The notes under the pieces are model-generated. The model was not told the DNA's origin and did no database searches. It was given only the letters and a program-made list of their open reading frames with translations. A stretch of 64,000 bases of DNA from the NCBI GenBank assembly GCA_963816975.1, contig CAWFMD010000006.1:1374465-1438464 (forward strand), read 5' to 3'. Position 1 is the first letter of the stretch; the number at the start of each line of letters is the position of its first letter. A program made the position numbers and the translations under genes. The DNA comes from an uncultured Solirubrobacterales bacterium. Lineage in GTDB: Bacteria; Actinomycetota; Thermoleophilia; Solirubrobacterales; JBBDJG01. Of this stretch, positions 2,736-43,322 are shown piece after piece.

Positions 2736-4940
2736 TCAGGAACGCTTGCGGCGGCGCCGCGCTCGGCGCAGGCGACGCGCGACACGCGCCGCCTCGCGCC
2801 GGTTCGCAGCCGGTGCGATCCGCACCGCGAGGCCCACCCGCCGGAACCTGCGCTGGTGCGCCAGCTGCACGGCGAGCGTGGGCCCGGGCCGGGGCGCGGA
2901 GGACTGCGCCTTCGGCCTCAGGATGTGCGCCGTGGCGCGCGGGCGCGCGCCGGTGGGCACGACCACGTACCCGGTCTCTTCGCCGGCGAGGTAGAAGTAC
3001 GCGACGTCGCGCAGGGATACCTGGCGCCGTTTCCGCTGCGGCTCGGCCAGCGTGACCCGGCGGCCGCCGCGCATCACCGCCTCCACGCGCGCGGTCTTGC
3101 CCCACGAGGGAAACATCACGTCAACCGTGTACCGCGCCCGGATGCGGCGCATCACGGCCCAGCGCGTCTCCACATGGCTCGGCGTGAACTTGTGCGTGGT
3201 GTCGATCACGACCTCGCGCGATTCCCGGCGGCCTTTCGCGACGAGGCTCTGGAAGGGCCCGGCGTATGGCCGGGCCGGATACGCCGGTGCAGCCGCCACC
3301 CGCCCCCGCGGTGAGGACAGCAGCGTGATCGGCGGGATCGGCGGCGCCACGGACCGCGGCCGCTGGGACGTGGCGATCTCCTGCTCACCACTGCGCACCA
3401 GCACGCCGAAGCTCGCCCACGGCCGGCCGCCCACGTTGGACACCACCCGCTGGTCGCCGTCATAGAGCCGGCACAGCTCCGTGCCGCCGTAGGGGAAGGC
3501 TCGCTGGTTGACCGGCACCACGGCGGTCGAGTAGCGCGGCGTGGTGATCGACAGGCGCCCGATGTCGGCATCGAAGGAGTACAGCGCAGGCGGCTCCTCG
3601 CCGCCCATCTCGCCCAGACCCAGCGCGATCGCGCGCGCCGCGTTCGCCTGCATGCGGGCGGCGAACAGCTCGCGGATGCTCGGGCCGAGCGGGGCGACGT
3701 TCACGTCGTAGAGGTTGGAGGGAGCGATCCCCTTCGCGTCGGGCGCCTCGCGCGAGAGCCGCTCGTACAGGCCGAGGCCGCGATCGAACATGTACTTCGC
3801 CCATGACCCGATCTCGGACCGGGCGTGAAAGCGCGGCGCCACGGCGATCGCCAGCAGTCCCTGCTGCGCGAGCGCCCAGGTGCGGCCGGCGTGCCAGCGC
3901 TTGAATCCGTAGCCGGTGTCCCAGTTCAGGTAGCCGCCATGGGTCCAGTAGGCGCACACGATGTGCTCGACCCAGGCCCGTAGCAGGCGGTAGTGATCGG
4001 GATGCAGCAGCGGCATGCCCGCGCGCACGGCCTGCTCGTGGTAGAGGATGAAGTGGCAGGTCTCGCTCGCATATTCGGCGCTGTCCACGTTGAACGGATG
4101 AGTCGGGGCCCGGTGGGGCAGATAGTGGAACCTGTAACCCGGCCCGAGGTTGGGCGAACCGCCCGGCGTGAGCGCGCGCGGGATGCCGTCGCAGAAGCGC
4201 GTCACCTGGGCGCGGTAGTCGTTGACGAGCAGCTCCGTGTCGCCCGTGATGCTCGCCGCATGGGCGTACAGCTCGCAGTTCCAGTTGACCTGGTTGAGGC
4301 GCACGTTCGGGAAGCGGAAGAACGGCCCGCGGGCGGCGCGGCTGACGCGGTCCGCGATCATGTCCACCGTCTCCTGCGGGAGTCGCAGCACGTCGCGTGC
4401 TCGCCACGCGTAGACGAGGGCCTCCGCAACCTTCGGATCGATCGACTTGTCCATCGCCGAGTCGCGGGTCCCGAGGCTCTCGACCCAGCCGGGGTTGTGG
4501 AACTGCGAGTCCCCGTCCGGCGACGCATCGCGCTCGCTCCACGGGGGCGACTCGCAGAGCCGCCGCGCGAGCGCGGCGGCGCGGCCGTCGTTGCGCGTCG
4601 GACCGACGTGGCCCGCGAGCGCGGCCACGGCGTGGGTCGTGAGCAACAGGGCGTTGTGGTAGATGCGGCCGACGGTGCTGTTGCCCGAGCCGTAATGCGA
4701 CCTGTCGTCCAGCCACAGGCCGTCGAAGTACGGTGCCAGCCAGTCCGCGAAGCGCCAGTAGTCGGCTGCCTTCAGCGGGGGCCGCGGGAGGCCGGGCGGA
4801 ACGAGGGCGCGATGCTCGGCTGCGTGGAACCCGAACGCGGGAGCCGGGACTGCGCCCAGGCCCCCGAGCGCCGCCGCACCGGCGCCCAATTGCGCGGAGC
4901 GCAGCATGAACTTCCTGCGTGTCAGCGATGGATCTGGCAT
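2736..4940 (-). CDS. Tat-signal secreted protein of unknown function (734 aa)
   Basis: N-terminus MPDPSLTRRKFMLRSAQLGAGAAALGGLGAVPAPAFG has a twin-arginine motif plus hydrophobic core. Coding-like composition throughout, with a very basic C-terminal tail (RRLRRARRRRKRS). Family not recognised with confidence. Confidence 0.75.
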   Translation of the reverse strand: MPDPSLTRRKFMLRSAQLGAGAAALGGLGAVPAPAFGFHAAEHRALVPPGLPRPPLKAADYWRFADWLAPYFDGLWLDDRSHYGSGNSTVGRIYHNALLLTTHAVAALAGHVGPTRNDGRAAALARRLCESPPWSERDASPDGDSQFHNPGWVESLGTRDSAMDKSIDPKVAEALVYAWRARDVLRLPQETVDMIADRVSRAARGPFFRFPNVRLNQVNWNCELYAHAASITGDTELLVNDYRAQVTRFCDGIPRALTPGGSPNLGPGYRFHYLPHRAPTHPFNVDSAEYASETCHFILYHEQAVRAGMPLLHPDHYRLLRAWVEHIVCAYWTHGGYLNWDTGYGFKRWHAGRTWALAQQGLLAIAVAPRFHARSEIGSWAKYMFDRGLGLYERLSREAPDAKGIAPSNLYDVNVAPLGPSIRELFAARMQANAARAIALGLGEMGGEEPPALYSFDADIGRLSITTPRYSTAVVPVNQRAFPYGGTELCRLYDGDQRVVSNVGGRPWASFGVLVRSGEQEIATSQRPRSVAPPIPPITLLSSPRGRVAAAPAYPARPYAGPFQSLVAKGRRESREVVIDTTHKFTPSHVETRWAVMRRIRARYTVDVMFPSWGKTARVEAVMRGGRRVTLAEPQRKRRQVSLRDVAYFYLAGEETGYVVVPTGARPRATAHILRPKAQSSAPRPGPTLAVQLAHQRRFRRVGLAVRIAPAANRREAARVARRLRRARRRRKRS

Positions 4941-5098
4941 CGAAGGCTGTGCAGCGGGCCGCGTGCTCAGGCTTGAACACGCGTGGGCCGGCGGCGGAGC
5001 GGTTTCCGGCCGGGTCTGCCCCGACAGGTTGTCAGGCCCGACGGGCGGCCGCGCCGCCGCGCAATAGCGTCGGGCGCGGCCCTTATGGTGACAAGGTC

Positions 5099-6529
5099 AT
5101 GGCCAAGCCTGTCGCCAGCTTCGCATGCACCGCCTGCGGCCAGGCCAGCCTGCGGTGGATGGGCCGCTGCCCGGGGTGCGGTGAGTGGAACACCCTGGTC
5201 GAAGAAAAGGCCGCCGATCGGCAGGCCGATCGGCGGGTTCGCGCTCGGGACCCGCGCGCATCGGGACGCCGGCGCGCGGCCGAGCCGCGCAAGCCGGTCG
5301 TCCTCGCCGACGTCGAGAGCGGCGCGGCCGACCGCCTGCGCACGGGCAGCGACGAGCTCGATCGTGTGCTCGGCGGCGGCCTCGTACCAGGCTCGGTCGT
5401 GCTGATCGGGGGCTCGCCCGGCATCGGCAAGAGCACCCTGATGAGCGCCGCCCTGGCGAACATCCAGGCCGCCGGCGCACGCTCGCTCTACGTCAGCGGC
5501 GAGGAGTCCGCAGCCCAGGTGAAGCTGCGCGCCGAGCGGCTCGGTCCCCATGCACTGGGCGTCCCGGTGCTGGCCGAGACCTCGCTCGAGGTGGTGCTCG
5601 CGTCGCTCGAGCAGGAGCGCCCGCAAGCTTGCGTGATCGACTCCGTGCAGACGCTCTGGTCGGCCGAGCTGACCGGCGCTCCGGGCAGCGTGGGACAGGT
5701 GCAGGAGGTCGCCGCGGCGCTCGAGCGCTTCGCCCGCGCGCACGGCTGCGCCATGATCCTGGTGGGCCACGTGACCAAGGAGGGCACCCTCGCCGGCCCG
5801 CGCGTGCTGGAGCACGCCGTCGATTGCGTCCTGCAGTTCGAGGGCGAGCGGGAGCGGAGCTTCCGGACGCTGCGCGCGCTGAAGAACCGCTTCGGGTCGA
5901 CCAACGAGATCGGGGTCTTCGAGATGCGCGCGGGGGGCCTCGACGAGGTCGCCGATCCCTCCGAGCGCTTCCTGCGCGATGCGGAGCCGGTGCCCGGTTC
6001 CTGCGTGCTCTGCGCGATGGAGGGCACGCGTCCGCTGCTGGTCGAGGTCCAGGCCCTGGTCGCACCCACGGACGTCGCGCCCCCGCGGCGGGTCGCGAAC
6101 GGCATCGACCGCAACCGGCTCAGCATGATCCTGGCTGTGCTGGCGCGCCACGGTGGGCCGTCGCTGGGAGCCGCGGACGTCTTCGTGAACGTGGCCGGTG
6201 GCGTCCGCATCGAGGAGCCCGGGGCCGACCTCGCCGTGGCGCTCGCGATCACGTCCGCCGCACGCAATGAGCCGCTCTCGGGCGGCGGGTCGCAGTCCGG
6301 GTGCTTCGGCGAGATCGGGCTGACCGGCGAGCTGCGCTACGTGGCCCATGCCGACCGGCGGCTGGAGGAGGCGGCGCGCTTCGGCCTCGAGCGGATCTTG
6401 CTCCCCGCGCGCTGCGGGGACGACGAGCTGCCGCCCGCCCGGAGGGCCCTGGCGGTGCCTGCGCCGACCCTCGCGCAGGCGCTTGCAGCGGCGCTCGGGA
6501 GCGGCGCGGAAGATCGCCGCGCGGCCTGA
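5099..6529 (+). CDS. radA: DNA repair protein RadA/Sms
   Basis: C4 zinc ribbon (CTACG..CPGCGEW), RecA-like Walker A GGSPGIGKST, LKNRFGSTNE motif, Lon-like C-terminal domain. ATG 5099 (MAKPVASFAC) preferred over track start 4919. Confidence 0.95.
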   Translation: MAKPVASFACTACGQASLRWMGRCPGCGEWNTLVEEKAADRQADRRVRARDPRASGRRRAAEPRKPVVLADVESGAADRLRTGSDELDRVLGGGLVPGSVVLIGGSPGIGKSTLMSAALANIQAAGARSLYVSGEESAAQVKLRAERLGPHALGVPVLAETSLEVVLASLEQERPQACVIDSVQTLWSAELTGAPGSVGQVQEVAAALERFARAHGCAMILVGHVTKEGTLAGPRVLEHAVDCVLQFEGERERSFRTLRALKNRFGSTNEIGVFEMRAGGLDEVADPSERFLRDAEPVPGSCVLCAMEGTRPLLVEVQALVAPTDVAPPRRVANGIDRNRLSMILAVLARHGGPSLGAADVFVNVAGGVRIEEPGADLAVALAITSAARNEPLSGGGSQSGCFGEIGLTGELRYVAHADRRLEEAARFGLERILLPARCGDDELPPARRALAVPAPTLAQALAAALGSGAEDRRAA

Positions 6530-6681: not shown

Positions 6682-7791
6682 ATGCGAGTAGGGGAAGAGT
6701 TAATCGAGGAGCTTCATTCTCGACAAGAACCCCGACTCCTCAGAGCATTGGAGATGGTCGCCCCGGGCACGGCGCTGCGGGAGGGCATCGACAACTGCGT
6801 GCTTGCTCGCACCGGGGCGCTGATCGTGATCGGCGACGAGGACGGCATGGTTCCGCTGCTGTCGGGTGGCATCAAGCTCGACATCGAGTACACGCCCGCC
6901 TTCCTCTACCAGCTCGCGAAGATGGACGGGGCCATCACGCTCACCCAGAACGCGACCAAGCTGATGTGGGCGAACGTGCAGCTCACCCCTGACCCGACGA
7001 TCCTCTCGCGCGAAACGGGAACGCGCCACCGCACCGCGGAGCGGGTCTCGAAGCAGACGGACGCGCTGGTGGTCTCGATCTCGGAGCGCCGCGAGGTCGT
7101 CACCCTGTTCGCCGGCGGAGCCAAGTACGTGCTCCAGGAGATCCCGGCCGTCCTCGCGAAGGCCAACCAGGCGCTGGCCACCCTCGACAAGTACCGGGCG
7201 CGCTTCGATCAGGTGTCCATGCGGCTGACCGCCCTCGAGTTCGAGGGCGGGGTCACGCTCCACGATGCGCTCACGGTGTTGCAGCGCTCCGAGATGGTGA
7301 CCCGCATGGCGGTCGAGATCGAACGCTACATCGTCGAGCTGGGGACCGAGGGGCGGCTGATCGAGATGCAGCTCGAGGAGATGCTCACGGGCGTCGCCGC
7401 CGACCGCTCCGCGCTTGTCAAGGACTACATCGTGGACCCGTCGGAAGAGGCGTTCGCGGCGGTCATGGAGTCGCTCCCGCGGCTTCCCAACCAGGACCTG
7501 CTGGACTTCGGCCGCCTGGGTGAGCTGATGGGTTACGACCGCAAGCTGAACACCCTGGACTTTCCCGTCACCCCGCGCGGCTACCGCATCCTGGGCCGCA
7601 TTCCTCGCCTCCCCGAGATGGTCGTGGAGAGCGTTGTGCGGGAGTTCGGAAGCTTCGACGTGATGCTGGCCGCGACAGCCGACGAGCTGGAGGCGGTCGA
7701 GGGCGTCGGTGAGCTGCGCGCGAAGGAGATCAGGGAGGGCCTCCGGCGCCTGCAGGAGATCAATCTTGTCGACCGCTACCTCCAGACATGA
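6682..7791 (+). CDS. disA: DNA integrity scanning protein DisA (diadenylate cyclase)
   Basis: DAC domain motifs (TGALIVIGDEDG, MDGAITL, GTRHRTAERVS), helical linker, C-terminal HhH-like region (VGELRAKEIREGL). ATG 6682 (MRVGEELIEEL). Confidence 0.95.
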   Translation: MRVGEELIEELHSRQEPRLLRALEMVAPGTALREGIDNCVLARTGALIVIGDEDGMVPLLSGGIKLDIEYTPAFLYQLAKMDGAITLTQNATKLMWANVQLTPDPTILSRETGTRHRTAERVSKQTDALVVSISERREVVTLFAGGAKYVLQEIPAVLAKANQALATLDKYRARFDQVSMRLTALEFEGGVTLHDALTVLQRSEMVTRMAVEIERYIVELGTEGRLIEMQLEEMLTGVAADRSALVKDYIVDPSEEAFAAVMESLPRLPNQDLLDFGRLGELMGYDRKLNTLDFPVTPRGYRILGRIPRLPEMVVESVVREFGSFDVMLAATADELEAVEGVGELRAKEIREGLRRLQEINLVDRYLQT

Positions 7792-7922: not shown

Positions 7923-8471
7923 GTGGAGAACGGCGCGGTAGAGGTGGACGCGATCATCGTCAACTACAAGGTTGGCGACAAGGTCGTGTATCCGCATCAC
8001 GGCGCCGGAAAGGTCCTGAAGAAGGAGAAGCGGGCGATGATCGGCGAGATGCGCGAGTACCTCACGATCAAGATCCTGCACAACGACATGACGGTCATGG
8101 TGCCGAGCGCCAGCGCGGGGCGGGCAGGCCTGCGCCGGGTGATCGGCGAGGCCGAGGTCGAGCGGGTGCTGGGCGTCTTGCGGGACGACATGAGCCAGAT
8201 GCCGAAGAACTGGAATCGGCGCTTCAAGCACAACCGCGACAAGATGAAGACGGGGGACATCTTCGAGCTCGCCGAGGTGGTGCGTAATCTCGCGATTCGT
8301 GATTTCCAGAAAGGCCTCTCCACGGGGGAGAAGCAGATGTTCACGCGAGCCAAGAAGATCCTCGCGTCCGAGCTCATGTACGCGCTCGACATGGAGGAGA
8401 AGGACGCCGAGGACTACCTCGACGACCTGCTCGAGGAGACCAACACGGAGCGCGCAGGGGCCGCGAGCTAG
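7923..8471 (+). CDS. carD: CarD/CdnL family RNA polymerase-binding transcription regulator
   Basis: KVGDKVVYPHHGAGKV..EYLTIKI is the CarD_CdnL_TRCF signature. GTG 7923 is from the track. The start is uncertain (see the finding on an in-frame ATT at 7905 behind AGGAGG). Confidence 0.9.
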   Translation: MENGAVEVDAIIVNYKVGDKVVYPHHGAGKVLKKEKRAMIGEMREYLTIKILHNDMTVMVPSASAGRAGLRRVIGEAEVERVLGVLRDDMSQMPKNWNRRFKHNRDKMKTGDIFELAEVVRNLAIRDFQKGLSTGEKQMFTRAKKILASELMYALDMEEKDAEDYLDDLLEETNTERAGAAS

Positions 8472-8521: not shown

Positions 8522-9208
8522 GTGGCCACGGCCCTCCTAGCGGCGGCGGGCGCCGGGGGACGCCTCGGCGCCGCCACGCCCAAGGCATTAGCCGAGGTCG
8601 CCGGCCGCGCGCTGATCGGGTGGAGCCTCGAGGCACTGGATGCCGCGGCCACCATCGACCGCGTCGTGATCGCCTTTCCGCCTGACTGGGAGGACGCCGT
8701 GCAGAAGGTCGCACGTCTCACCGCCCCGTCCGTGGAGATCTCGCTCACCCGTGGCGGGACGAGTCGCTCCCACTCGGTCAGGAACGCGCTCGCGGCGATC
8801 GAGGGCGCCGACGAGATCCTGGTCCACGACGCCGCCCGGCCGCTCGTCACTGCGGAGTTGATCGACCGCTGCGTGGAGCAGCGCCGCCAGTGGGACTGCG
8901 ACGGAGTGGTGGCCGCGGCCCGCGCGGTGGACACGATCAAGGAGGCCGACGCGGGCGGCCGGGTGATCGCGACCCTCGAACGCCGTCACCTGTGGGCGAT
9001 CCAGACACCGCAGGTGTTCACCGCCTCCGTCCTGCGTGAGGCGCTCGATCGCGGCGACCTCGACCGCGCCTACGACGACGCCCAGCTCGTCGAGGGGATC
9101 GGAGGCGACGTCAGGATCGTGGAGGCGCCGCGCCAGAACTTCAAGGTCACGACCCAGCACGATCTGCGGGTCGCGGAGTGGCTGCTCGAGGAGCGGCGCC
9201 GCGGCTGA
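8522..9208 (+). CDS. ispD: 2-C-methyl-D-erythritol 4-phosphate cytidylyltransferase
   Basis: N-terminal LLAAAGAGGRLG..PKALAEVAGRALI nucleotidyltransferase motif, with IspD-like length and order. GAGGAGGG lies 4-5 nt before GTG 8522. Confidence 0.9.
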   Translation: MATALLAAAGAGGRLGAATPKALAEVAGRALIGWSLEALDAAATIDRVVIAFPPDWEDAVQKVARLTAPSVEISLTRGGTSRSHSVRNALAAIEGADEILVHDAARPLVTAELIDRCVEQRRQWDCDGVVAAARAVDTIKEADAGGRVIATLERRHLWAIQTPQVFTASVLREALDRGDLDRAYDDAQLVEGIGGDVRIVEAPRQNFKVTTQHDLRVAEWLLEERRRG

Positions 9209-10029
9209 TGCTGACCGACTACCACACTCATCTGCGCCCCGACGCGCGCGACACTCCAGCCGCGCGGTACTTCACCGAGGACAACGTGCGGCGCTACCTC
9301 GAGGCCGCGCAGGGGCAGGGCATCGAGGAGCTTGGCTTCTCGGAGCACGTCTATCGCTTCCGCGAGAGCCTCGCGGTGTGGCGCCACCCGTTCTGGGTGG
9401 AGTGCGCCCAGGACTCGCTGGACGAGTACGTCGAGTTCCTGATCTCCATGCCGGTCAAGGTCGGCCTGGAGCTCGACTGGATCCCCGGGCGCGAGGAGCA
9501 GCTTGCGGCAATCGCCGATGCGTACCCCTGGGACTACATAATCGGGTCGGTGCACTTCATCGCAGACCGCGCTGTCGACCACGACGGATACGACATCTGG
9601 GCCACGTCGAGCCCCGACGAAGTGTGGTCTGCCTACTTCGATGCGCTCGGCGAGGCGGCCGCCAGCGGGCTCTTCGACGTGCTCGCGCACCCCGACCTCG
9701 TGAAGGTCTGGGGAAATGACAGACCGCGCCCGCCGCGGCCGGCGCGCGAGTACTACGAGCTGGCGATGGACCGGATCGCCGCCGCGGACGTGGCGATCGA
9801 GGTCTCCACGGCGGGGCTGCGCAAGCCCGTCGGCGAGATCTACCCGGAGCGCGAGCTGCTCGAGGCCTTCGCCGCTGCCGGCAAGCCCGTGTCGCTGTCC
9901 TCCGACGCGCACGAACCGGAGTGGATCGGCTACGGCTACGACCAGGCGGTGGCACTGATGCGCGAGTGCGGAATCGACCGCGTTTGCGTGTTCGAGGGCC
10001 GCCAGCGCCGCGAGGTCCCGCTCGGATGA
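9208..10029 (+). CDS. PHP-family histidinol-phosphatase-like protein (HisJ/HisK type)
   Basis: MLTDYHTHLRP start, plus SEHV, GSVHF, AHPDL and SSDAH metal-ligand motifs of the PHP fold. ATG 9208 overlaps the ispD TGA by 1 nt. Confidence 0.85.
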   Translation: MLTDYHTHLRPDARDTPAARYFTEDNVRRYLEAAQGQGIEELGFSEHVYRFRESLAVWRHPFWVECAQDSLDEYVEFLISMPVKVGLELDWIPGREEQLAAIADAYPWDYIIGSVHFIADRAVDHDGYDIWATSSPDEVWSAYFDALGEAAASGLFDVLAHPDLVKVWGNDRPRPPRPAREYYELAMDRIAAADVAIEVSTAGLRKPVGEIYPERELLEAFAAAGKPVSLSSDAHEPEWIGYGYDQAVALMRECGIDRVCVFEGRQRREVPLG

Positions 10030-10496
10030 GGTCCGGGATCGGCTACGACGTGCACCGGTTCGGTGACGGCCGCAGGCTCGTGCTGGGAGGGGTCGAGATT
10101 GCGGGGGAACGCGGGCTCGAGGGTCATTCGGACGCGGACGTGGTGACCCATGCCGTGGCGGACGCGTTGCTCGGCGCGGCCGGGCTCGGTGACATCGGCG
10201 AGCACTTCCCGGACGACGATCCGCGCTACCAGGACGCCGACAGCATCGACCTGCTGGCGCAGATCGCGCGAAAGCTCGGCGGCTGGCGGCTCGTGAACGT
10301 GGATGTCAGCGTGATCGCGGAGCAGCCGCGGCTCGCGCCGCTCAAGCGCGCGATGGCCGAGCGGCTGGCGGGCGCCCTGGGCATCGACGCGTCGTGCGTG
10401 AACGTGAAGGCCACGACGAGCGAGGGCATGGGCTTCGTCGGCCGCGGCGAAGGGATCGCCGCGTTGGCTGTGGCACAGATCGAGCGCGACGGGTGA
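10026..10496 (+). CDS. ispF: 2-C-methyl-D-erythritol 2,4-cyclodiphosphate synthase
   Basis: GIGYDVHRF, GHSDADV and DIGEHFPD motifs. ATG 10026 forms an ATGA overlap with the preceding stop. Confidence 0.95.
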   Translation: MRSGIGYDVHRFGDGRRLVLGGVEIAGERGLEGHSDADVVTHAVADALLGAAGLGDIGEHFPDDDPRYQDADSIDLLAQIARKLGGWRLVNVDVSVIAEQPRLAPLKRAMAERLAGALGIDASCVNVKATTSEGMGFVGRGEGIAALAVAQIERDG

Positions 10497-11890
10497 GCGC
10501 GGTACGCATCCACGACTCGCTGCGCGGGGAAGTGCGCGACCTCGAACCGCGGGAGCCGGGCAAGGTCGGCATCTACGCGTGCGGGCCGACCGTGTACGGC
10601 CGCATCCATGTGGGGAACGCGCGTCCCTACATCGTCTTCGCGCTCCTGAAGCGGTTTTTGGAGCACGAGGGATACGACGTGACCCTGGTCGAGAACATCA
10701 CCGACGTGAACGACAAGATCTACGACGCCGCCCGCACGGCGGGTGTGACCTCGGACCGGCTGGCGCGCGAGATGACCGCGGCCTATCGCGCCGATACCGA
10801 CCGGCTCGAGCTCGGCCGCCCCGATCGCGAGCCGCTGGCCAGCCAGACGATCGATCCGATCATCCATCTGATCGAGGCCCTGATCGAACGCGGCCACGCC
10901 TATGCGGCGCAGGGCGACGTCTACTTCAGCGTGCGCAGCTTCGACGGGTACGGCAAGCTCTCCAACCGTCGCCTCGAGGATCTGCTCCCGGCCGATCAGG
11001 GCGAGCCGGACGCCGAGCAGGTGCGCAAGCGCGACCCTCTGGACTTCGCCCTGTGGAAGGCGCAGAAGCCGGACGAGGACACCGCCTGGGACTCGCCCTG
11101 GGGCCGGGGCCGGCCCGGCTGGCACATCGAGTGCTCCGCGATGGCCGAGGAGATCCTCGGGCTCGAGTTCGACATCCACGGCGGCGGCTCCGACCTGATG
11201 TTTCCACACCACGAGAACGAGATCGCGCAGACCGAGGCGGGCCGGGGGGCACCGCTGGCCCGCTTGTGGATGCACAACGGGATGATCCGCTTCGGGGAGG
11301 AGAAGATGGCGAAGTCGGTCGGCAACGTCATGACGCTGGCGGACGCGCTCGACAGCTACGGCCGGGATGCGCTGATCGTCTACATGCTCGGCGGGCACTA
11401 CCGGCAGCCGCTGGCCTTCTCGGCGGAGCGGATGGAGGAAGCGCGGCAGGCGACACGGCGGCTCGCGGACTTCGCGCGCCTGGTGCGGCGCAGCGGCGAC
11501 CTCGTCGCAGGTGAGCCGGACCACGACGCCGCGGCGCTCGAGCAGGAGTTCTTCGCAGCCCTGCGGGATGACTTCAACACGCCGGAGGCGCTGGCGGCGC
11601 TGTTCAAGCTCGTCAGCGAGGGCAACCGCCGGATCGATTCCGGCCGCGCGCTGCCCGGCACGTGGTCCGTGCTGGGCGGGATGTTCGAGGTGCTGGGGCT
11701 GGAGGGCATGCTGGAAGAGCGCGAGGGCATCGACGAGGACGCCCTGCGCCTGGTGCAGGAGCGCGAGGACGCGCGCCTGGCGCGGGACTACAGCCGCGCC
11801 GACGCGGCCCGCGACGAGCTGCTCAAGCGTGGGTGGGAGGTGCGCGACACGTCGGAGGGCCCCGTGCTGGTGCCCGTCGCCGGAAGTTGA
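10493..11890 (+). CDS. cysS: Cysteine--tRNA ligase
   Basis: Class I aaRS motifs HVGNARPY (HIGH-type) and KMAKSVGN (KMSKS-type), plus CGPTVYG. GTG 10493 forms a GTGA overlap with the ispF stop. Confidence 0.95.
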   Translation: MSAVRIHDSLRGEVRDLEPREPGKVGIYACGPTVYGRIHVGNARPYIVFALLKRFLEHEGYDVTLVENITDVNDKIYDAARTAGVTSDRLAREMTAAYRADTDRLELGRPDREPLASQTIDPIIHLIEALIERGHAYAAQGDVYFSVRSFDGYGKLSNRRLEDLLPADQGEPDAEQVRKRDPLDFALWKAQKPDEDTAWDSPWGRGRPGWHIECSAMAEEILGLEFDIHGGGSDLMFPHHENEIAQTEAGRGAPLARLWMHNGMIRFGEEKMAKSVGNVMTLADALDSYGRDALIVYMLGGHYRQPLAFSAERMEEARQATRRLADFARLVRRSGDLVAGEPDHDAAALEQEFFAALRDDFNTPEALAALFKLVSEGNRRIDSGRALPGTWSVLGGMFEVLGLEGMLEEREGIDEDALRLVQEREDARLARDYSRADAARDELLKRGWEVRDTSEGPVLVPVAGS

Positions 11891-12594
11891 CCCTGTACGG
11901 CCGCAACGCCGTGCTGGAGGCTCTGCGGGGCCGCCGGAAGGTCCGCCGCGCATGGGTTGCCGACGAGCGCCTCGGCGCCACCGTTCGCGCCGCCGGCGTT
12001 CCCTGCGAGACGGCCGGCGCCGCGGCGCTCGAGGATCTCTGTGGCTCGTCCGCCCACCAGGGGATCGTGGCCGAGGTCGATCCGTACCCCTACTCGCAGG
12101 CGCGTGACCTGTTGAGCGGCGACCAGGCGCTCGTGGTCGCGCTCGACCAGATCCAGGATCCGCAGAACCTGGGCGCGATCTGCCGCAGCGCCGAGGGGGC
12201 CGGGGCGACCGGGGTAGTGATCCCGGAGCGCCGCGCCGTCGAGATCACCCCGGCGGTCTGCCGGGCATCCGCCGGCGCGGTCGAGCATCTGCCCGTCGCC
12301 CGCGTCCGCAACCTGGCCGACTTCCTCGCGGACGCCAAGCGCGCCGGCGCCTGGGTGTACGGGGCGGACGCGGCCGCGGCCCGGCTGTACACCGATGTCG
12401 ACTGGACCGGACCGGCGGTGCTGGTGCTCGGATCCGAGGGCCGTGGGGTGCGCCCGCGCGTGCGCGCGGCCTGCGACGACGTGATCGGCTTGCCCCTGCA
12501 CGGCAGGGTGGAATCGCTGAATGTGTCCGCCGCGGCGGCGGTTTTGCTGTACGAGGCTGTGCGATCTCGTGCAGTCGCAGCCCGGGACACTTGA
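11887..12594 (+). CDS. rlmB: SpoU/TrmH-family 23S rRNA 2'-O-methyltransferase (RlmB-like)
   Basis: LDQIQDPQNLGAICRSAEGAGA, LVLGSEGRGVR and LNVSAAAAVLLYE motifs. TTG 11887 forms a TTGA overlap with the cysS stop; the exact start is uncertain. Confidence 0.85.
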   Translation: MTLYGRNAVLEALRGRRKVRRAWVADERLGATVRAAGVPCETAGAAALEDLCGSSAHQGIVAEVDPYPYSQARDLLSGDQALVVALDQIQDPQNLGAICRSAEGAGATGVVIPERRAVEITPAVCRASAGAVEHLPVARVRNLADFLADAKRAGAWVYGADAAAARLYTDVDWTGPAVLVLGSEGRGVRPRVRAACDDVIGLPLHGRVESLNVSAAAAVLLYEAVRSRAVAARDT

Positions 12595-12618
12595 CAAGTC
12601 CACATAACTCCGTACACT
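12591..12618 (+). promoter_or_regulatory. Candidate sigma-70-type promoter for sigH (TTGACA-16 nt-TACACT)
   Basis: Perfect -35 hexamer TTGACA at 12591-12596, overlapping the rlmB stop. TACACT sits 16 nt downstream. A lower-GC 175-nt leader follows. Confidence 0.3.
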
Positions 12619-12769
12619 TGCCGCGCAAATCTAAGGTTGGACTTGAGGTTGAGCTTTAGGAAAGCCTGAAGCTTGGCTCGAGTCTCCAACGTCGAGGCGC
12701 CAGGGGAGGTAGCGCGCCACGGCCGAATCCACGCGATCCCGGACGGGGTCGCTAGGTGAGGAGGTTGCA

Positions 12770-13537
12770 GTGGCCGTTTCTCCCTCTCGCAGGGCCAGCA
12801 CGAGAGGCTCTGTTGCTGGTATGACCGCAGGGACAGCCGCCGGGCACGCCACGGCGCGAAAGCTCACACGGCGCGTCTCAGGTGCCGCGCCGCAGACCGC
12901 CCGGCGCAAGCAGGGTGCCTATCAGCCTGACGACGAGTACCTCGTGGCGCTCGCCAAACAGGGCGCTGCGCACGCGACAGACAGGCTCGTCCGCCGGTAC
13001 CACGGGTTCGTGCGCCTGAAGGCCTCGTCCTACTTCCTGATCGGGGGCGACTCCGACGACCTGATTCAGGAGGGCCTGGTCGGCCTGTACAAGTCGATCC
13101 GCGACTACCGCCCCGAGCGCGAGTCGAGCTTCCGCAACTTTGCGGAGCTGTGCATCACCCGCCAGATCATCACCGCAGTCAAGACGGCAACGCGCAACAA
13201 GCACACGCCGCTCAACTCCTACGTCTCGTTCAGCCAGACGCCGGCCGCGGGCGGGGAGGAGGGCGAGCCGACGATGGCGGACGTGCTCCCGGGCTCGACC
13301 GTCCACGATCCGGTGAACCAGGTGATCTCCGCGGAGGAGATCCGGAGCCTCGTGGGCTGCATCACCAGCGTGCTCAGCGAGCTGGAGAGCCATGTGCTCT
13401 CGCTGTACCTGGACGGCCGCTCCTACGAGGAGGTGGCGGAGCGGCTGGAGTGCGACACCAAGACTGTCGACAACGCGCTCCAGCGCGTGAAGCGCAAGGT
13501 CGGGATGCACCTCGACTCGCGGGCGGTGCCGCTCTAG
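12770..13537 (+). CDS. sigH: RNA polymerase sigma factor, Bacillus SigH (Spo0H)-type
   Basis: Long near-identical blocks to the SigH signature as I recall it: SYFLIGGDSDDLIQEGLVGLYKSIRDY, SFRNFAELCITRQIITAVKTATRNKHTPLNSYVS, LSLYLDGRSYEEV, VDNALQRVKRK. GAGGAGG lies 6 nt before GTG 12770. Confidence 0.9.
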   Translation: MAVSPSRRASTRGSVAGMTAGTAAGHATARKLTRRVSGAAPQTARRKQGAYQPDDEYLVALAKQGAAHATDRLVRRYHGFVRLKASSYFLIGGDSDDLIQEGLVGLYKSIRDYRPERESSFRNFAELCITRQIITAVKTATRNKHTPLNSYVSFSQTPAAGGEEGEPTMADVLPGSTVHDPVNQVISAEEIRSLVGCITSVLSELESHVLSLYLDGRSYEEVAERLECDTKTVDNALQRVKRKVGMHLDSRAVPL

Positions 13538-13547: not shown

Positions 13548-13829
13548 CTAGTTCTCAGCGCGCCTGGCGTAAACCGGCGCCGGGCGCGTGACATGGGTGC
13601 CGCCGTCGGCCTGCGGGCACGGAGCCGTCTTGCATCCCGCTCCGCCGCCGACCGGGCCGCGGCGCGGCCAGCGCGGCAGAGGCGGGAGCTTGCGGCGCGG
13701 CCCGCGATCCTCGCCCGTCGCCTCCTCCGGAAAGGGTTCCTGCTTGATCGCCCACCAGACGAGCCACAGGGCCGCGATCATCGGGATCTTCAGGATCACG
13801 ACCATGTAGAAGATGGTCCAGCCTTCCAA
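13548..13829 (-). CDS. Small membrane protein, unknown function
   Basis: N-terminal hydrophobic helix (IFYMVVILKIPMIAALWLVWWAI) followed by a Pro/Arg/Gly-rich tail. No family recognised. Confidence 0.45.
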   Translation of the reverse strand: MEGWTIFYMVVILKIPMIAALWLVWWAIKQEPFPEEATGEDRGPRRKLPPLPRWPRRGPVGGGAGCKTAPCPQADGGTHVTRPAPVYARRAEN

Positions 13830-21396: not shown

Positions 21397-22815
21397 TCAG
21401 CAGCCCGACTGGGGGTCCGACGCGTTCGTCGGGGCACTCGGGCATTCCTCCCAGGTGCTGCGGGTGAAGCCCGACGCCGACCCGGACCCACCGCTGCCGG
21501 GGGGGTTGCTGCTGATGCCCGAGACGTCCCCCTCGACGAAGTTGAGGCCGTTGGTGGCGGTCACGCTCTGGGCGTAGATCGCTCCGTACCAGTTCGTCTT
21601 GTTCGTGAATTTGACGGGCGCATTCGGGGCGAAGAGTGCGGCCCCGAAGCCGGACTGGTTGCTGACGTTGATCTGGGCCGCACCGTAGTAGATGATCTGC
21701 AGCGCGGTCGGGTCGGCGGGCGGGCTGAGCGCCGGGTTGTAGTTCAAGTAGGAGGTATTGGTGATCGTGAACTTGCTGTCGCTGGAGCAGCTCGAGCCCG
21801 GGCGCGAGGATGAGTCGATGAACAACTGGACCTTTGCTCCGTTCAACAACACGATGCTTGTCTTGTTGCTGAACTTCACTTCGCAGAAGTTGAAGATCCA
21901 GTAGCCGCCCGAGCCCGCGCGCGGGTTCTGGCCGGTCAGCGTGAGGGTGGCGTCCCCGCTGTCCTCGAGGCTGCGCGTGCCGCTCGCCGGGTTGTAGTCG
22001 AAGCCGGCGGCGCTGCCGAAGACCGCCGCGTTGTCGTTGTTCGCGGCCAGCGCGGTGTTCGGATTGCCGATCAGCCCGTCGAAGCTGGGCGTCGGCCAGG
22101 GCGTCGGGTTGGGCGGCGCGACGTTGGGGGTGCCGCTGCACGAGTTCGAGATCGTCCCGCTCGGCCCCGGCGCGAAATCGATGCTCGAGGCCGAGCCCGA
22201 GGTCTTGCAGGACTTGAGCTTGAACTCGCCGTTCGTCGCGACCCGGCCCACGATGTCTCCGAAGCCGTTCTGGTTGATGTCGATCGAGCCCAGCCCCGAG
22301 AGTCCCAATCTCGGAAACAGCGGGGTGCTCGCTGCCGCGCTCGCGACCAGGGCCTCGAGGCGGCGCACCACGTTGCCGACCGTCCCGATCGAGGTGATGC
22401 ACCGCTGGATCGGCGTCGCGCCTCCGCTCTGCGCGGTCGTTCCGCCGCAGGCGGTCCCGGCGTCGAGCACGGGGGTCACGTAGTAGGAGTAGGTCGCGCC
22501 GTTGCCCGCGCCTGCGGTGGCCGGCGGGCACTCGCCGGGCGCCGCACCCGACGTGCCCGTCGCGACCGGCTGGTCCGTCAGGCACATGCCGGCTGCGGGG
22601 TCGACCTTGTTGAGGCGGTACCGCGCGATCTGCATGCCGGCCTCCGCCGCGCCGAGCGCGCGCTTCGCGCTGGTGTCCCGGCTCGCGGTGTTGTTGGCCT
22701 GGATCGACGCGCTGAGCACGACCGCGACCAGCAGGAGAACGACCGCCAGCACGGATACCGCGAGCGCCACCGCGACGCCGCTCTCGTCCCGGATCAGGCG
22801 GCGCGACACGCTCAC
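21397..22815 (-). CDS. PilX-N-like large pseudopilin/pilus-associated protein
   Basis: GTG 22815 forms a GTGA overlap with the upstream stop. RDESGVAVALAVSVLAVVLLLVAVVLSASIQ...AKRALGAAEAGMQIA matches the PilX N-terminal pattern. Gly/Thr/Ser/Asn-rich beta-type remainder. Confidence 0.7.
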   Translation of the reverse strand: MSVSRRLIRDESGVAVALAVSVLAVVLLLVAVVLSASIQANNTASRDTSAKRALGAAEAGMQIARYRLNKVDPAAGMCLTDQPVATGTSGAAPGECPPATAGAGNGATYSYYVTPVLDAGTACGGTTAQSGGATPIQRCITSIGTVGNVVRRLEALVASAAASTPLFPRLGLSGLGSIDINQNGFGDIVGRVATNGEFKLKSCKTSGSASSIDFAPGPSGTISNSCSGTPNVAPPNPTPWPTPSFDGLIGNPNTALAANNDNAAVFGSAAGFDYNPASGTRSLEDSGDATLTLTGQNPRAGSGGYWIFNFCEVKFSNKTSIVLLNGAKVQLFIDSSSRPGSSCSSDSKFTITNTSYLNYNPALSPPADPTALQIIYYGAAQINVSNQSGFGAALFAPNAPVKFTNKTNWYGAIYAQSVTATNGLNFVEGDVSGISSNPPGSGGSGSASGFTRSTWEECPSAPTNASDPQSGC

Positions 22816-23477
22816 GAGCCCTTCCTCGCGTTCGGGTCCGTTGCCACGGCGGAGAACAGCAGCGGCTTGCGGGCGCTGCCCGTGACCGTCACCGCCACCG
22901 TGATTCGCTTGTAGTCGGAGGTGATCGCCTGGTCCGCGGAGCTGGAGCACGATGTGCACGGGTCGTCGATCGAGGTGATGAACCTGTAGAGGCTCCCGGT
23001 CAGTCCCCCGGCGCTCCACGAGATCGGGCCGGGGGCCGTGGTCCCGCTCGCGTTGATCACCAGCGGGGCGACCGTCGCCGATGAGGCGGGGGCACTCTGG
23101 TCCCACTGGTAGCACGAGCTTGCGGAGGCGGGACAGCCCGAGGCGCCACTCGCGTAGACGTAGTAGCGGGGATCGCCCGGGTTCGTGCTCGCGGCGGGAG
23201 CCGCGTTGGTCGCGATCGATGCGTAGCCTCCCGCGAGCAGCCGTTCGAGGTCCTGCTGCGCGACGTGCGCGGCGGCCTGCTTGTTCTCCGAGCTGACGGT
23301 CAGCCTGCGGGAGCTGTCGAGCGCCATCGCCGCTCCCAGGAGGCCGACGGACAGCATCATGATCGCCACCAGCAGCTCGATCATCGTGAAGCCGCGCTCG
23401 TGGAGCAGCCGGCGGCGGGCCCGTCCAGCCAGGGGCGGCCCCGCGGTGGCGAGCGCTTTCAGCGCGTGCGACGTCAC
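22812..23477 (-). CDS. Type IV pilin-like protein with prepilin cleavage/methylation motif
   Basis: ERG/FTMIELLVAIMMLSVGLLG (G-1, E+5, hydrophobic helix). Track coordinates used. Confidence 0.8.
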   Translation of the reverse strand: MTSHALKALATAGPPLAGRARRRLLHERGFTMIELLVAIMMLSVGLLGAAMALDSSRRLTVSSENKQAAAHVAQQDLERLLAGGYASIATNAAPAASTNPGDPRYYVYASGASGCPASASSCYQWDQSAPASSATVAPLVINASGTTAPGPISWSAGGLTGSLYRFITSIDDPCTSCSSSADQAITSDYKRITVAVTVTGSARKPLLFSAVATDPNARKGS

Positions 23478-24088
23478 TGGGTTCCGAGATTCCTGGGGTA
23501 GAAGCCATCGTCCAGGGTGATGTTTCGGCTGTAGCCGGTCGAGCCTCCAGCGTTGGCGGGCACGACGACGGTGGCCTGGACGAACGTCGGATTAATCGCG
23601 TCCGGCGTGAAGCTGAAGACGCCCGGGTTGGACGGCGCCGCCGCGGTCCCGTTCAGGACCCGGTCCACGATCACAGGCGCGCTTCCGGTACTCGGCGCGG
23701 CCGTGAGCGTCGTGCTGGCAGCCCGCACGCACTGGCGATAGCTGACCCCCGAAGGCTGCACGTCGCACTTGTAGACGACGCGCGTCGGCACTCCCGCGAT
23801 CGCGATCTTGACGTCCATCGTGCTCGCGCTCGCCGCATAGATGGTGCTGGCCTGGCGCAGCTCGCGGGTCATGCGATGGAGGCCGACCTGGACCGCGCGG
23901 GCGGCTTGGCCGGCTGCGATCTCGCGCCTGGCGACCTTGTCCGTGACGTTGTAGAAGCCGAACAGCGACAGCATGACCACGACGAACCCCGACATCACTG
24001 CCAGCAGCTCGATCAGCGAGAACCCGGCCTCGCCGCCGAGCAGGCGCGCAGCTCCACGTGGAGCCTTCCGTGGCATCCAGTTGGACAT
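23474..24088 (-). CDS. Type IV pilin-like protein with prepilin cleavage/methylation motif
   Basis: GEAG/FSLIELLAVMSGFVVVMLSLFG. ATG 24088 (MSNWMPRKAPRG) chosen, because the track ORF start 24205 would run into the tRNA gene. Confidence 0.8.
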   Translation of the reverse strand: MSNWMPRKAPRGAARLLGGEAGFSLIELLAVMSGFVVVMLSLFGFYNVTDKVARREIAAGQAARAVQVGLHRMTRELRQASTIYAASASTMDVKIAIAGVPTRVVYKCDVQPSGVSYRQCVRAASTTLTAAPSTGSAPVIVDRVLNGTAAAPSNPGVFSFTPDAINPTFVQATVVVPANAGGSTGYSRNITLDDGFYPRNLGTQ

Positions 24089-24169
24089 TCGACCTATGTG
24101 TGATCGGCTACTTCGGCCCAGGGGTTGAGCGGAAACGCGGTTTTCCGTCGCCTCCCTCCTGACGCGCAG

Positions 24170-24242
24170 AGCCGGAGAGGGGACTCGAACCCCTGGCCCC
24201 GTCATTACAAGTGACGTGCTCTACCAACTGAGCTACTCCGGC
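24170..24242 (-). tRNA. tRNA-Thr (anticodon UGU)
   Basis: Minus strand reads GCCGGAGTAGCTCAGTTGGTAGAGCACGTCACTTGTAATGACGGGGCCAGGGGTTCGAGTCCCCTCTCCGGCT. Acceptor stem GCCGGAG/CTCCGGC, D arm GCTC/GAGC, anticodon stem CGTCA/TGACG with loop CTTGTAA, T arm AGGGG-TTCGAGT-CCCCT. 73 nt, CCA not encoded. Confidence 0.9.
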
Positions 24243-24817: not shown

Positions 24818-26497
24818 ATGCGGGGTATTCACCCTGTCGAGATGGACCTCGAGCGCGCCCACCAGATCGCCCGCGAACGCGGCCCCGTGATGCCCGTCTA
24901 TTGGGTGGTCCGCGCGATCCTCCAGCCGTTCTTCCACCTGTACTTCCGACTCGGACGCATCGGCCGGGAGCACGTCCCCGCGCAGGGCCCCGTGCTGCTC
25001 GCGTCCAACCACCGCAGCTTCGCGGACCCATTCCTGATCGGCTGCTGCCTCGGGCGTCCGCTGCGCTTCGTCGCGAAGCTCGAGTTGTTCGACAAGCGCT
25101 GGAAGGCCCGGCTCCTGCTGGCCCTCGGCGCCTTCCCCATCCGCCGCGGGGAATCCGACGAGGCCGCGATGGAGACGGCCCGGGTGATCCTCGAGCAGGG
25201 CGGTGCGGTCGGCATCTTCCCGGAGGGCACCCGCGTGCGGCCCGGTCCGCTGGGCGAGCCGAAGCGCGGCGTCGGCCGGCTGGCGCTCGAGACCGGCGCT
25301 CCCATCGTGCCCGTCGCGATCGTCGGCACGGAGGACATCCGCAAGGGCTGGCGCATCCGCCCGCGCCGCGTGACCGTCCGCTGCGGCCGCGCCCTGCGCT
25401 TCCCGCGCCCACTCGATCGCGAGCCCCGTCAGGCGGCCGCGCAGGAGATCTCCAACCGCGTGTGGTCGTGCATCTCGTTGCAGTGGGAATGGCTCGGGGG
25501 CCTGCAGCCGATCCGCCAGGCTGTCGTGGTCGGCGCCGGCAGCTGGGGCACTGCGGTGGCCACGCTGCTGGCGCGCTCAGGCACCACGGTGCAGCTCGGC
25601 TGCCGCACCGCGGAGCAGGCTCGCGACCTCGGCCTGAACCGCACGAATGCCGCGTATCTGCCGGGAGTCCAGCTGCCCGACAACGTGCGGGTCGTGATGG
25701 TCGACGATCTCCGCTTCGACGACGTGAGCCTGGTCTGCATGGCGGTTCCCTCCCGCTCGCTCGACGACGCGCTCGGCGCCATCCGGGCGCGCATCCCCGA
25801 CGGCCTCGGCGTGCTGGTGCTCTCGAAGGGCCTGCTTGCGCCGCACGGCACGCTGCCGAGCCAGCTGGTCGCCGCGCGCACCGGCGAACGGCCGACCGCA
25901 TGCCTCGGCGGGCCGGCTCATGCCGGCGAAGCGGTTCGCCGCGGCGCGCACGTGACCGTCGCATCTGCCGACCCGACGTTCGCGGCGCTGATCGCGAGCA
26001 GCCTGCGGCGCGCGGGACTTGCGTGCGACACGAGCCGCGACCTCGTCGGCATCGAGCTCGCAGGTGCCGCGAAGAACGCGGCCGCCCTGGCCGCGGGTGC
26101 GGCGATGGCGGATGGGCCGAACGCGGCCGGGGCGGCCGCGGGACGCGTCTACGAGGAGTGCCACGCGCTCGCCCACAAGCGCGGCGCGGCGGCCGCGAGC
26201 TTCACCGGTACGGCCGGCATCGGCGACCTGGTGGCCACCGTGCTCGCGGCACACAGCCGCAACCGGCGCGCCGGCGAGCTGCTTGCGCAGGGAGTCGAGC
26301 CCGGGGAGATCCCGCAGATCCTGGGCCAGGTTCCGGAGTCCCTGCATGCGGTACCCGTGCTCGCGCGGGCGATGAGCGAGGCGGGCGTCCGATCCACGGC
26401 GACCGAGCAGCTGGCGGCGCTCGCGGAGGGACGCATCGGCCCGGACCAGTGGGTCGAATTGGCGCGCCGCTCGCGCGCAGGGTCACGAGCCGCCTGA
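24818..26497 (+). CDS. plsC/gpsA: Fusion protein: 1-acyl-sn-glycerol-3-phosphate acyltransferase (PlsC) domain + NAD(P)H-dependent glycerol-3-phosphate dehydrogenase (GpsA) domain
   Basis: N-half: LLASNHRSFADPF (HX4D) and GIFPEGTR. C-half: VVVGAGSWGTAVATLLA Rossmann motif, NAAYLPG, GAAKNAAALAAG. One continuous frame with no stop between the halves. The start could be 24818 or 24842. Confidence 0.85.
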   Translation: MRGIHPVEMDLERAHQIARERGPVMPVYWVVRAILQPFFHLYFRLGRIGREHVPAQGPVLLASNHRSFADPFLIGCCLGRPLRFVAKLELFDKRWKARLLLALGAFPIRRGESDEAAMETARVILEQGGAVGIFPEGTRVRPGPLGEPKRGVGRLALETGAPIVPVAIVGTEDIRKGWRIRPRRVTVRCGRALRFPRPLDREPRQAAAQEISNRVWSCISLQWEWLGGLQPIRQAVVVGAGSWGTAVATLLARSGTTVQLGCRTAEQARDLGLNRTNAAYLPGVQLPDNVRVVMVDDLRFDDVSLVCMAVPSRSLDDALGAIRARIPDGLGVLVLSKGLLAPHGTLPSQLVAARTGERPTACLGGPAHAGEAVRRGAHVTVASADPTFAALIASSLRRAGLACDTSRDLVGIELAGAAKNAAALAAGAAMADGPNAAGAAAGRVYEECHALAHKRGAAAASFTGTAGIGDLVATVLAAHSRNRRAGELLAQGVEPGEIPQILGQVPESLHAVPVLARAMSEAGVRSTATEQLAALAEGRIGPDQWVELARRSRAGSRAA

Positions 26498-43312: not shown

Positions 43313-43322
43313 GGAAAGAGAC

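Follow-up and report, generated by a model that had tools for sequence, protein, structure and literature searches.

The alternative sigma factor SigH (Spo0H, sigma-30) is usually pictured in one of two ways, as the sigma factor that opens the sporulation cascade of Bacillus or as the one that serves competence in Firmicutes that do not sporulate. In Bacillus subtilis it recognizes promoters of the consensus RNAGGAWWW, 11–12 nucleotides (nt), RNNGAAT, and Bacillus sigH is repressed by AbrB. Among non-sporulating Firmicutes, SigH-like factors include SigH of Staphylococcus aureus and ComX of streptococci. The protein called SigH in mycobacteria and corynebacteria is a group 4 extracytoplasmic function (ECF) factor that responds to heat and oxidative stress and is paired with the anti-sigma factor RshA. 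In B. subtilis, SigH drives the expression of hpf and couples nutrient limitation to such genes (PMC12421865). The SigH-like factors of non-sporulating Firmicutes activate competence genes, as in Lactobacillus sakei, a non-sporulator in which a sigma factor of the SigH lineage is encoded in the cysS–nusG locus and activates com genes when overproduced (PMC3364868). Here we describe a SigH (Spo0H)-family alternative sigma factor, an orthologue of Firmicutes SigH, from an uncultured Solirubrobacterales bacterium (Actinomycetota; Thermoleophilia). Its gene lies on the forward strand of a stretch of 64,000 nt (contig CAWFMD010000006.1, positions 1,374,465 to 1,438,464), which was analysed as a whole and is referred to as the window.

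The gene had been placed at 12595–13537 in an earlier note on this DNA. An open reading frame (ORF) is indeed present, the sole long open frame of this interval in the ORF listing, but it starts with a GTG codon at 12770 and encodes 255 amino acids. Position 12595 is the first base past the rlmB stop codon, translation begun there hits stop codons, and the 175 bases from 12595 to 12769 are noncoding and comprise the promoter and the 5′ untranslated region (5′UTR). The G+C content at third codon positions (GC3) of sigH is 0.88, similar to that of the neighbouring genes, and the codon-position pattern is typical for coding frames in this window, which has an overall G+C content of 70%. A scan that took one genome per species retrieved at least 538 genome stretches encoding a SigH relative; the best 80 of these stretches are the 80 loci named below. 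At the position homologous to the Shine-Dalgarno sequence of the window, related loci carry GAAAGGA. The parts of the gene and its product are as follows.

12758–12764, + strand: Shine-Dalgarno sequence GAGGAGG, 5 nt ahead of the GTG (read from the sequence)
12770–13537, + strand: sigH coding sequence, 255 amino acids (ORF listing, NCBIfam SigH equivalogs, Pfam)
12770–12928: N-terminal Ala/Arg-rich extension of SigH, residues 1–53
12932–13198: sigma region 2, residues 55–143
residues 146–187: variable linker
13331–13522: sigma region 4, residues 188–251

Membership of the SigH family is evident from several comparisons. The protein passes three equivalog models of the NCBIfam PRK08295 group, SigH (Spo0H), namely NF006148 (252.9 bits, cut-off 208), NF006145 (237.9 bits, cut-off 212), and NF006147 (213.8 bits, cut-off 212). 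Alignment with SigH of B. subtilis PY79 (P0336) gives 49% identity across 202 amino acids (E 9e-72), a similarity well above chance; a B. subtilis SigH sequence that was also used as a query is 98–99% identical to NCBI-named SigH proteins of the B. subtilis group. The four motif blocks on which the earlier identification had been founded, YFLIGgDsdDliQEGlvGLYKSIRD, FrnFAELCITRQIITAvKTATRnKHtPLNSY, LYLDGRSYeE, and DNALQRVKRK, align without gaps with named Bacillus SigH proteins and are invariant across the SigH proteins of Thermoleophilia, Acidimicrobiales, and Bacillus. Compared with SigH of B. spizizenii, regions 2.3–2.4 are 82% and the recognition helix of region 4.2 is 79% identical, whereas the linker reaches just 26%. 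Two further models weigh against too narrow an assignment: TIGR02859 (spore_sigH, cut-off 294.8) and NF006146 (cut-off 414) are missed with 243.3 and 223.9 bits, respectively. Since TIGR02859 is an older and narrower model built on endospore formers, these misses place the window protein in the broad family, outside the narrow spore-former equivalog.

The domain structure agrees with that of the B. subtilis protein, which matches the same equivalogs and has the same sigma-2/linker/sigma-4 layout. Pfam identifies only Sigma70_r2 (residues 73–142) and Sigma70_r4_2 (residues 200–243), and both region 1.1 and a canonical region 3 are missing. In an AlphaFold model built on 35 homologues, residues 55–143 and 188–251 form helical domains with predicted local distance difference test (pLDDT) values >90, while confidence is low, mostly below 50–55, in the N-terminus (1–53) and in the linker (146–187). 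Unlike B. subtilis SigH, the proteins of the window lineage carry an extra N-terminal extension of about 50 residues (roughly 40–50, rich in Ala, Arg, Thr, and Gly), which is mostly modelled at low confidence and is probably disordered. It is shared only with the closest relatives (P0001, L001, P0055); most Thermoleophilia SigH proteins begin with VARISxNPNSEPKVED and have a length of about 215–220 amino acids.

A layout of only regions 2 and 4 is also typical of ECF factors, and the generic sigma70-ECF superfamily model matches window SigH with 83 bits. The protein could thus be taken for an ordinary actinobacterial ECF or group-3 sigma factor whose SigH-like blocks are convergent or were over-read, the placement that the earlier note had named as fatal to its own proposal. 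Specific models of other sigma factor families (RpoE, SigK, SigI), however, score at most 45 bits, and the RpoE-type models at most 40, against 214–253 bits for the SigH equivalogs. Window SigH shares 20% identity (E 0.18) with the ECF sigma factor whose gene lies at 26536–27102 of the window, and the Kimura distance is 2.75 to ECF but 0.8–0.96 to other SigH proteins. By sequence, the closest solved structure is a Fusobacterium 'sigma-H factor' (3mzy, E 1.5e-18), and the top Foldseek match is the B. subtilis RPSH model (9a4r, E 6.8e-15, 45% identity), followed by housekeeping sigma factors at about 1e-6. Model scores, identity, distance, and fold match together rule out an ECF or group-3 identity, to which we assign practically no probability. 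As the motif blocks also align, neither of the two refuting conditions named in the earlier note holds. Name, phylum, and two-domain layout are all that the window protein has in common with the ECF-type SigH of Mycobacterium tuberculosis and Corynebacterium glutamicum; it shows no comparable match to ECF models and has no adjacent anti-sigma gene. A 93-amino-acid ORF on the opposite strand (13548–13829, −) runs towards sigH, and its product has a hydrophobic helix at the N-terminus and a tail rich in Pro, Arg, and Gly. The ORF was considered as an anti-sigma gene and rejected, being convergent, without a family match, and kept in only 2 of the 80 loci (L001, L002).

The SigH/ComX factors of non-sporulating Firmicutes offer a further contrast. 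They are strongly diverged (a pair of lactobacilli, for example, shares just 29% identity) and have a tie to competence genes (PMC3364868), whereas the SigH of Thermoleophilia stays near the Bacillus type, with about 80% identity in the segments that recognize the −10 and −35 elements. The host itself differs from B. subtilis in being a high-GC actinobacterium from a group without reported endospores.

The position of the gene likewise links it to the Bacillus counterpart, in which sigH follows cysS and rlmB in the radA–disA–ispD block. The corresponding genes of the window are listed here in their order.

63–1865, + strand: ClpC/ClpB-type AAA protein, cut by the window edge (NCBIfam/Pfam)
4919–6529, + strand: radA (NCBIfam/Pfam, above cut-offs)
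about 6721–7791, + strand: disA (NCBIfam/Pfam)
7923–8471, + strand: carD (NCBIfam/Pfam)
8522–9208, + strand: ispD (NCBIfam/Pfam)
9178–10029, + strand: PHP/HisJ-family histidinol-phosphatase (NF005596, 218.9 bits, cut-off 202)
about 10493–11890, + strand: cysS (NCBIfam/Pfam)
about 11890–12594, + strand: rlmB (extent of the hidden Markov model match; NCBIfam/Pfam)

Upstream of sigH, the earlier note had read the block radA–disA–carD–ispD–ispF–cysS–rlmB. NCBIfam and Pfam recover every one of these genes except for the supposed ispF, which is a PHP/HisJ histidinol-phosphatase. This gene occupies the place that ispF has in Bacillus and in an Acidimicrobiales metagenome-assembled genome (MAG), and 44 of the 80 Thermoleophilia loci were found to have it between ispD and cysS. 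The ispF gene must lie elsewhere in the genome.

The Firmicutes-like position ascribed to the gene is borne out for its upstream half. A Bacillus contig (L082) has the order radA–disA–yacL–ispD–ispF–gltX–cysE–cysS–mrnC–rlmB–yacP–sigH–secE–nusG–rplK, so that the sequence cysS…rlmB–sigH is seen directly, and an Acidimicrobiales contig (L081) reads clpC–unknown gene–radA–disA–carD–ispD–ispF–rlmB–sigH. The same upstream gene order is thus found in the window, the Thermoleophilia loci, the Acidimicrobiales MAG, and Bacillus. In contrast to Bacillus, the window has neither yacP nor mrnC between rlmB and sigH. The downstream half is not shared: secE–nusG–rplK are missing 3′ of the window sigH, which weighs against a fully conserved locus, and their place is taken by the convergent membrane ORF mentioned above, an LLM-type oxidoreductase, a cupredoxin, and the cytochrome oxidase subunits II, I, and III. 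The genes downstream of sigH also vary among the 80 related loci.

All of the best 80 of the at least 538 stretches stem from Thermoleophilia, including members of the Solirubrobacterales, Solirubrobacteraceae, Conexibacter, Paraconexibacteraceae, and Thermoleophilaceae as well as Solirubrobacter phytolaccae, and sigH is preceded by cysS in 76 and by rlmB in 75 of them. Closest among the matches listed is a Solirubrobacterales MAG (L001) with an 88% identical SigH, in which 14 of 14 tested neighbour genes have the same order (68–98% identity). The protein database holds thousands of close SigH relatives from soil metagenomes, which IMG labels 'RNA polymerase sporulation-specific sigma factor' or 'sigma-H' and NCBI labels 'SigH [Thermoleophilaceae bacterium]'. 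A search of 1.84 billion cluster representatives gave 859 clusters at E <= 1e-30; its named distant high-GC members include Patulibacter medicamentivorans, P. defluvii, a 'Thermoleophilia bacterium', and two independent 'Acidimicrobiales bacterium' MAGs. When seeded with an Acidimicrobiales protein, the search returned >100 further clusters at 68–79% identity, several of them named Acidimicrobiales or Actinomycetota and located on contigs of up to 1 Mb. Hence, sigH is regularly present in the Thermoleophilia, and MAGs that carry the label Acidimicrobiales commonly encode relatives. The gene is not peculiar to this genome, and automatic annotation already names these proteins SigH. Full-text literature searches found no paper on SigH/Spo0H in Thermoleophilia, Acidimicrobiia, or other Actinomycetota, and sigma factors are not mentioned in a Thermoleophilia marker paper or in the Conexibacter genome paper.

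To our knowledge, classical actinobacteria of the Mycobacterium type have no SigH at this locus. We favour an origin by vertical inheritance, in which the ancestor common to Bacillota and Actinomycetota would already have had sigH behind cysS–rlmB; the gene would have been kept in the deep-branching Thermoleophilia and in Acidimicrobiia MAGs (one contig examined, same locus), and was presumably lost in the classical actinobacteria. Descent with later loss is favoured because the position is common to two actinobacterial classes and Bacillus, the codon composition is native, and the gene is present in 80/80 retrieved Thermoleophilia loci. The phylogeny that the earlier note had proposed for placing the protein sets it far from the ECF factors but gives no firm order to the deep branches. 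In a neighbour-joining bootstrap over 195 columns, the Thermoleophilia proteins together with window SigH receive 61% and the Acidimicrobiales 63%; the deeper groupings receive 4–18% (18% for Thermoleophilia plus Acidimicrobiales). The case for vertical descent therefore rests on synteny and not on phylogeny, and the protein tree neither supports nor contradicts it.

Such poorly separated deep nodes leave room for an ancient horizontal transfer, by which a Firmicutes sigH entered the ancestor of the Thermoleophilia, with the Acidimicrobiia acquiring it separately or jointly, and was then fixed; sigH would in that case not be an ancestral gene of the Terrabacteria. An identity of 49% to Bacillus SigH is moreover unusually high between phyla, given that some SigH-like proteins within the lactobacilli are only 29% identical (PMC3364868). 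Yet a transferred gene would have had to insert at the exact homologous site, as sigH follows rlmB in Thermoleophilia, Acidimicrobiales, and Bacillus alike. Its occurrence in all of the best 80 Thermoleophilia loci and in at least 538 stretches, its native codon composition, and the separate grouping of the Thermoleophilia proteins, which do not nest within the low-GC sequences, also speak against a transfer, which we regard as improbable.

In contrast to the coding sequence, the control region of sigH is unrelated to that of Bacillus. Between rlmB and sigH lie 175 bases that are conserved throughout the Thermoleophilia and contain a promoter-like site and four RNA helices (P1–P4).

12591–12618, + strand: sigma-70-type promoter-like site, TTGACA (12591–12596), 16-nt spacer, TACACT (12613–12618) (consensus scan, 10/12)
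12636–12690, + strand: hairpin P1 around AACCUnAGGUU (UCUAAGGUU / CUUGAGGUU in the window) (RNAfold)
12696–12718, + strand: hairpin P2, GGCGCC-aGGGGAGGtag-GCGCC, with an invariant GGGAGG loop (motif search, alignment)
12716–12774, + strand: long-range helix P4, enclosing P3 and the Shine-Dalgarno sequence (RNAalifold in two subgroups)
12729–12756, + strand: hairpin P3, of variable sequence, directly 5′ of the Shine-Dalgarno sequence (RNAfold)

The promoter-like site overlaps the rlmB stop codon. Only 0.1 sites of such a score are expected in shuffles, and 58 of 81 sequences have a TTGACA at the corresponding position, with the motif CATAAC conserved in the spacer behind it. Expression of sigH would accordingly start at a housekeeping-type promoter and yield a 5′UTR of about 145 nt (from the predicted start), which folds in the window with a z-score of −3.46. 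A promoter-like site, TTGACA-17-TAGAAA, is also present at the end of rlmB in the Acidimicrobiales contig (L081, 6609–6640), about 90 nt before sigH; this suggests that the position of the putative promoter, but not the leader, is common to Thermoleophilia and Acidimicrobiales. A candidate autoregulatory SigH promoter within the leader, AGGTTTA-N12-ATTGAAT, was rejected, as it occurs in one Solirubrobacteraceae subgroup only and is found neither in the window nor in most loci.

The P2 motif stands upstream of sigH in the window and in 73 of the 80 Thermoleophilia loci, and the remainder of about 1.5 Mb contains only 7 loose matches to it; it is absent from the Acidimicrobiales (L081) and Bacillus (L082) loci, as is the leader as a whole. 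From a plain MAFFT alignment of the complete set of leaders, RNAalifold recovers P2 only, whereas P1, P3, and P4 were obtained by aligning subgroups, by folding single sequences, and from a P2/P4 alignment that had been trimmed. A hairpin at the position of P1 is seen again in 56 loci although the sequence changes (mean z −1.8, with z < −1 in 75%), and its partner strand differs between subgroups. P3, too, reappears in 56 loci, where its sequences are unrelated (mean z −1.5); its compensatory pairs were recovered by RNAalifold in one subgroup.

Helix P4 involves the start codon itself. In the window, GCCAC(GGCC) at 12716–12724 pairs with GGUU (12763–12766) and with GUGGC (12770–12774), the latter consisting of the sigH start codon and the next two bases. 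As P4 recurs in the class, GCCAC-U-GAGCA directly after P2 pairs with UGCUC-GUGGC, that is, with the start codon and its flanks, giving a duplex of on average −16.4 kcal/mol (z −3.6), with z < −1 in 57 of 58 loci. Variants with other bases but maintained pairing were found in L004, L006–8, L038, L043, L050, L061, and L072. As counted on a spliced P2/P4 alignment construct, 86.9% of the P4 cells are paired, against 27–49% with a slid partner, and 15 cells are changed on both sides; in P2, which shows exchanges of G-C to A-U and of C-G to U-A, 94.6% of the cells pair and 4 are changed on both sides. None of 500 shuffles reaches either result, the sequences in question being related and the shuffle controls overstating the significance. 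This relatedness has to be held against the covariation, and in the window P4 is weaker than in most relatives, at −11.7 kcal/mol and a z-score of −0.9. The trinucleotide GCC belongs both to P2, as part of its 3′ strand, and to P4, as part of its 5′ strand, so the two helices may compete.

The conserved GGGAGG hairpin and the covarying helix at the start codon suggest translational control of sigH, in which the structured leader would gate translation and the helix following the GGGAGG-loop hairpin would sequester the start codon. Temperature, a small RNA, a protein, or a ligand could be the trigger. A long 5′UTR of a sigma factor gene that folds with its initiation region paired is likewise known from the Escherichia coli rpoS leader, which is opened by small RNAs, and from the rpoH mRNA, which is a thermosensor; RNA thermometers that sequester the start site are comparable in general. 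Neither by sequence nor by Rfam is the sigH leader related to these RNAs. A search of the leader against Rfam 15 gave no match at the gathering score, and in E-value mode a single spurious one, to a miRNA model (E 2.7). This class-wide sigH leader has not been described before, and we know of no described counterpart to the invariant GGGAGG loop with the overlapping P2 and P4.

Two additional sequence elements were noticed in and near the leader. Firstly, CTCCC at 12780–12784 (codons 4–5; +10/+11) is the complement of GGGAG, which is invariant in the P2 loop, and both are paired with each other in the minimum-energy fold of the window. CUCCC is present at +10/+11 in 30 of 58 loci (52%), compared with 2% in other 30-nt gene windows, but the pairing shows no covariation and conserved Ile-Ser codons could explain the CUCCC. 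Secondly, a near-palindrome (A)ACCTnAGGT(T) is conserved in the leader (12630–12663 in the window), and many loci (for example L035, L044, L060) have a near-identical copy, CTGAACCTAAGGT, at about +20 to +35 of the sigH coding sequence. The window leader carries CTAAGGTT, CTTGAGGTT, and CTTTAGG, and CTCAGGT follows about 110 nt into the sigH coding sequence. The near-palindrome could be an operator for a DNA-binding protein or a part of the RNA structure.

Once translated, SigH would bind the core RNA polymerase with its sigma-2 and sigma-4 domains, and the holoenzyme would read SigH-type promoters. We infer a promoter specificity of the Bacillus SigH type because the −10 and −35 recognition segments are so similar to those of Bacillus SigH. 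The search for such promoters that the earlier note had suggested was run on the window and the related loci and gave nothing in the former and nothing beyond chance in the latter. The 64-kb window contains 0 strict SigH-type promoters (0.04 expected) and 1 match in a relaxed scan, at or below chance, and 1.4 Mb of related loci contain 3 matches, about the chance number; these counts lend the predicted specificity no support. They are uninformative, however, because all loci cover the same region. Two homologous matches (L046, L048) were discarded as regulon evidence, as they lie within an open reading frame.

By analogy to the systems described, the regulon of window SigH would correspond to the non-sporulation core of the SigH response, the entry into nutrient limitation or stationary phase, perhaps together with DNA-uptake genes as in non-sporulating Firmicutes. 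A regulon of this kind is most likely because named cultured relatives are described as non-spore-forming, as is stated for Solirubrobacter (PMC10722151). For window SigH, we thus infer a role in nutrient limitation or as a transition-state regulator, possibly including competence. No sporulation or competence genes are among the annotated genes of the 64-kb window.

A cryptic endospore-type sporulation programme of the Thermoleophilia under the control of SigH would be suggested only by the family-model name 'sporulation sigma factor', which was carried over from Bacillus by homology. The window annotations hold no sporulation gene, non-sporulating Firmicutes also keep SigH (PMC3364868), and Solirubrobacter isolates are described as non-spore-forming (PMC10722151); such a programme is therefore highly improbable. 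Somewhat less far-fetched, but still unlikely, is that SigH acts here specifically as a competence (DNA-uptake) sigma factor like ComX/SigH of non-sporulating Firmicutes, rather than as a broad transition-state regulator. The activation of com genes by overproduced SigH in L. sakei (PMC3364868) would fit this role, as would the host class, which is non-sporulating as far as descriptions go. On the other hand, neither competence genes nor SigH boxes were found in the window or the related loci, and window SigH, at 49% identity, is much closer to the broad-regulon SigH of Bacillus than the divergent competence-type factors are.

Taken together, we consider it likely that the gene encodes a vertically kept SigH orthologue that would read SigH-type promoters and serve a non-sporulation starvation regulon, with its translation gated by the leader. 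A more far-reaching proposal, which we put forward tentatively and at slightly less than even chances, is that SigH did not arise in the Firmicutes in connection with endospores but is ancestral to the Terrabacteria, stood after rlmB in the ancestor of Bacillota and Actinomycetota, and persists in Thermoleophilia and Acidimicrobiia, its promoter specificity nearly unchanged; in the Thermoleophilia it would have come under a previously undescribed riboregulator in which P2 and P4 would compete.

Several other features of the window deserve mention. A cyclic di-AMP (ydaO-type) riboswitch at 43133–43325 (+; 62.3 bits, gathering score 38) precedes an M23 peptidase/PcsB-like cell-wall hydrolase (43308–44570, +), and the cyclic di-AMP synthase DisA is encoded in the same window. 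The ECF-type sigma factor gene (26536–27102) follows a gene for a fused acyltransferase and glycerol-3-phosphate dehydrogenase (PlsC-GpsA, 24818–26497), and a similar acyltransferase–ECF pair is located a few kb 3′ of sigH in the Thermoleophilia loci L003 and L072. Long ORFs without Pfam or NCBIfam matches encode 734 amino acids between clpC and radA (2736–4940, −) and 703 and 243 amino acids (21397–24205, −) beside a tRNA-Thr gene (24169–24242); their GC3 of 0.81–0.90 is coding-like. The rest of the window contains, among others, genes of lipid and acyl-CoA metabolism, a CHASE2-HD protein, and glutamate synthase.

An orthologue with conserved DNA-recognition segments is standard equipment, at the same locus, in the abundant and poorly studied soil actinobacteria of the Thermoleophilia and Acidimicrobiia, and the product name 'sporulation sigma factor SigH' is misleading in these phyla, as is the SigH of mycobacteria, an unrelated ECF factor of the same name. 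Literature searches found no characterized regulatory RNA in Thermoleophilia, and the sigH leader is a concrete candidate for the translational control of an alternative sigma factor. In a genome of 70% G+C, the AT-rich SigH promoter motif should be rare by chance, so that the regulon should be unusually easy to predict. The presence of the orthologue at the same locus in Thermoleophilia and Acidimicrobiia suggests that SigH is older than endospore formation, and its original task was probably the adaptation to starvation.

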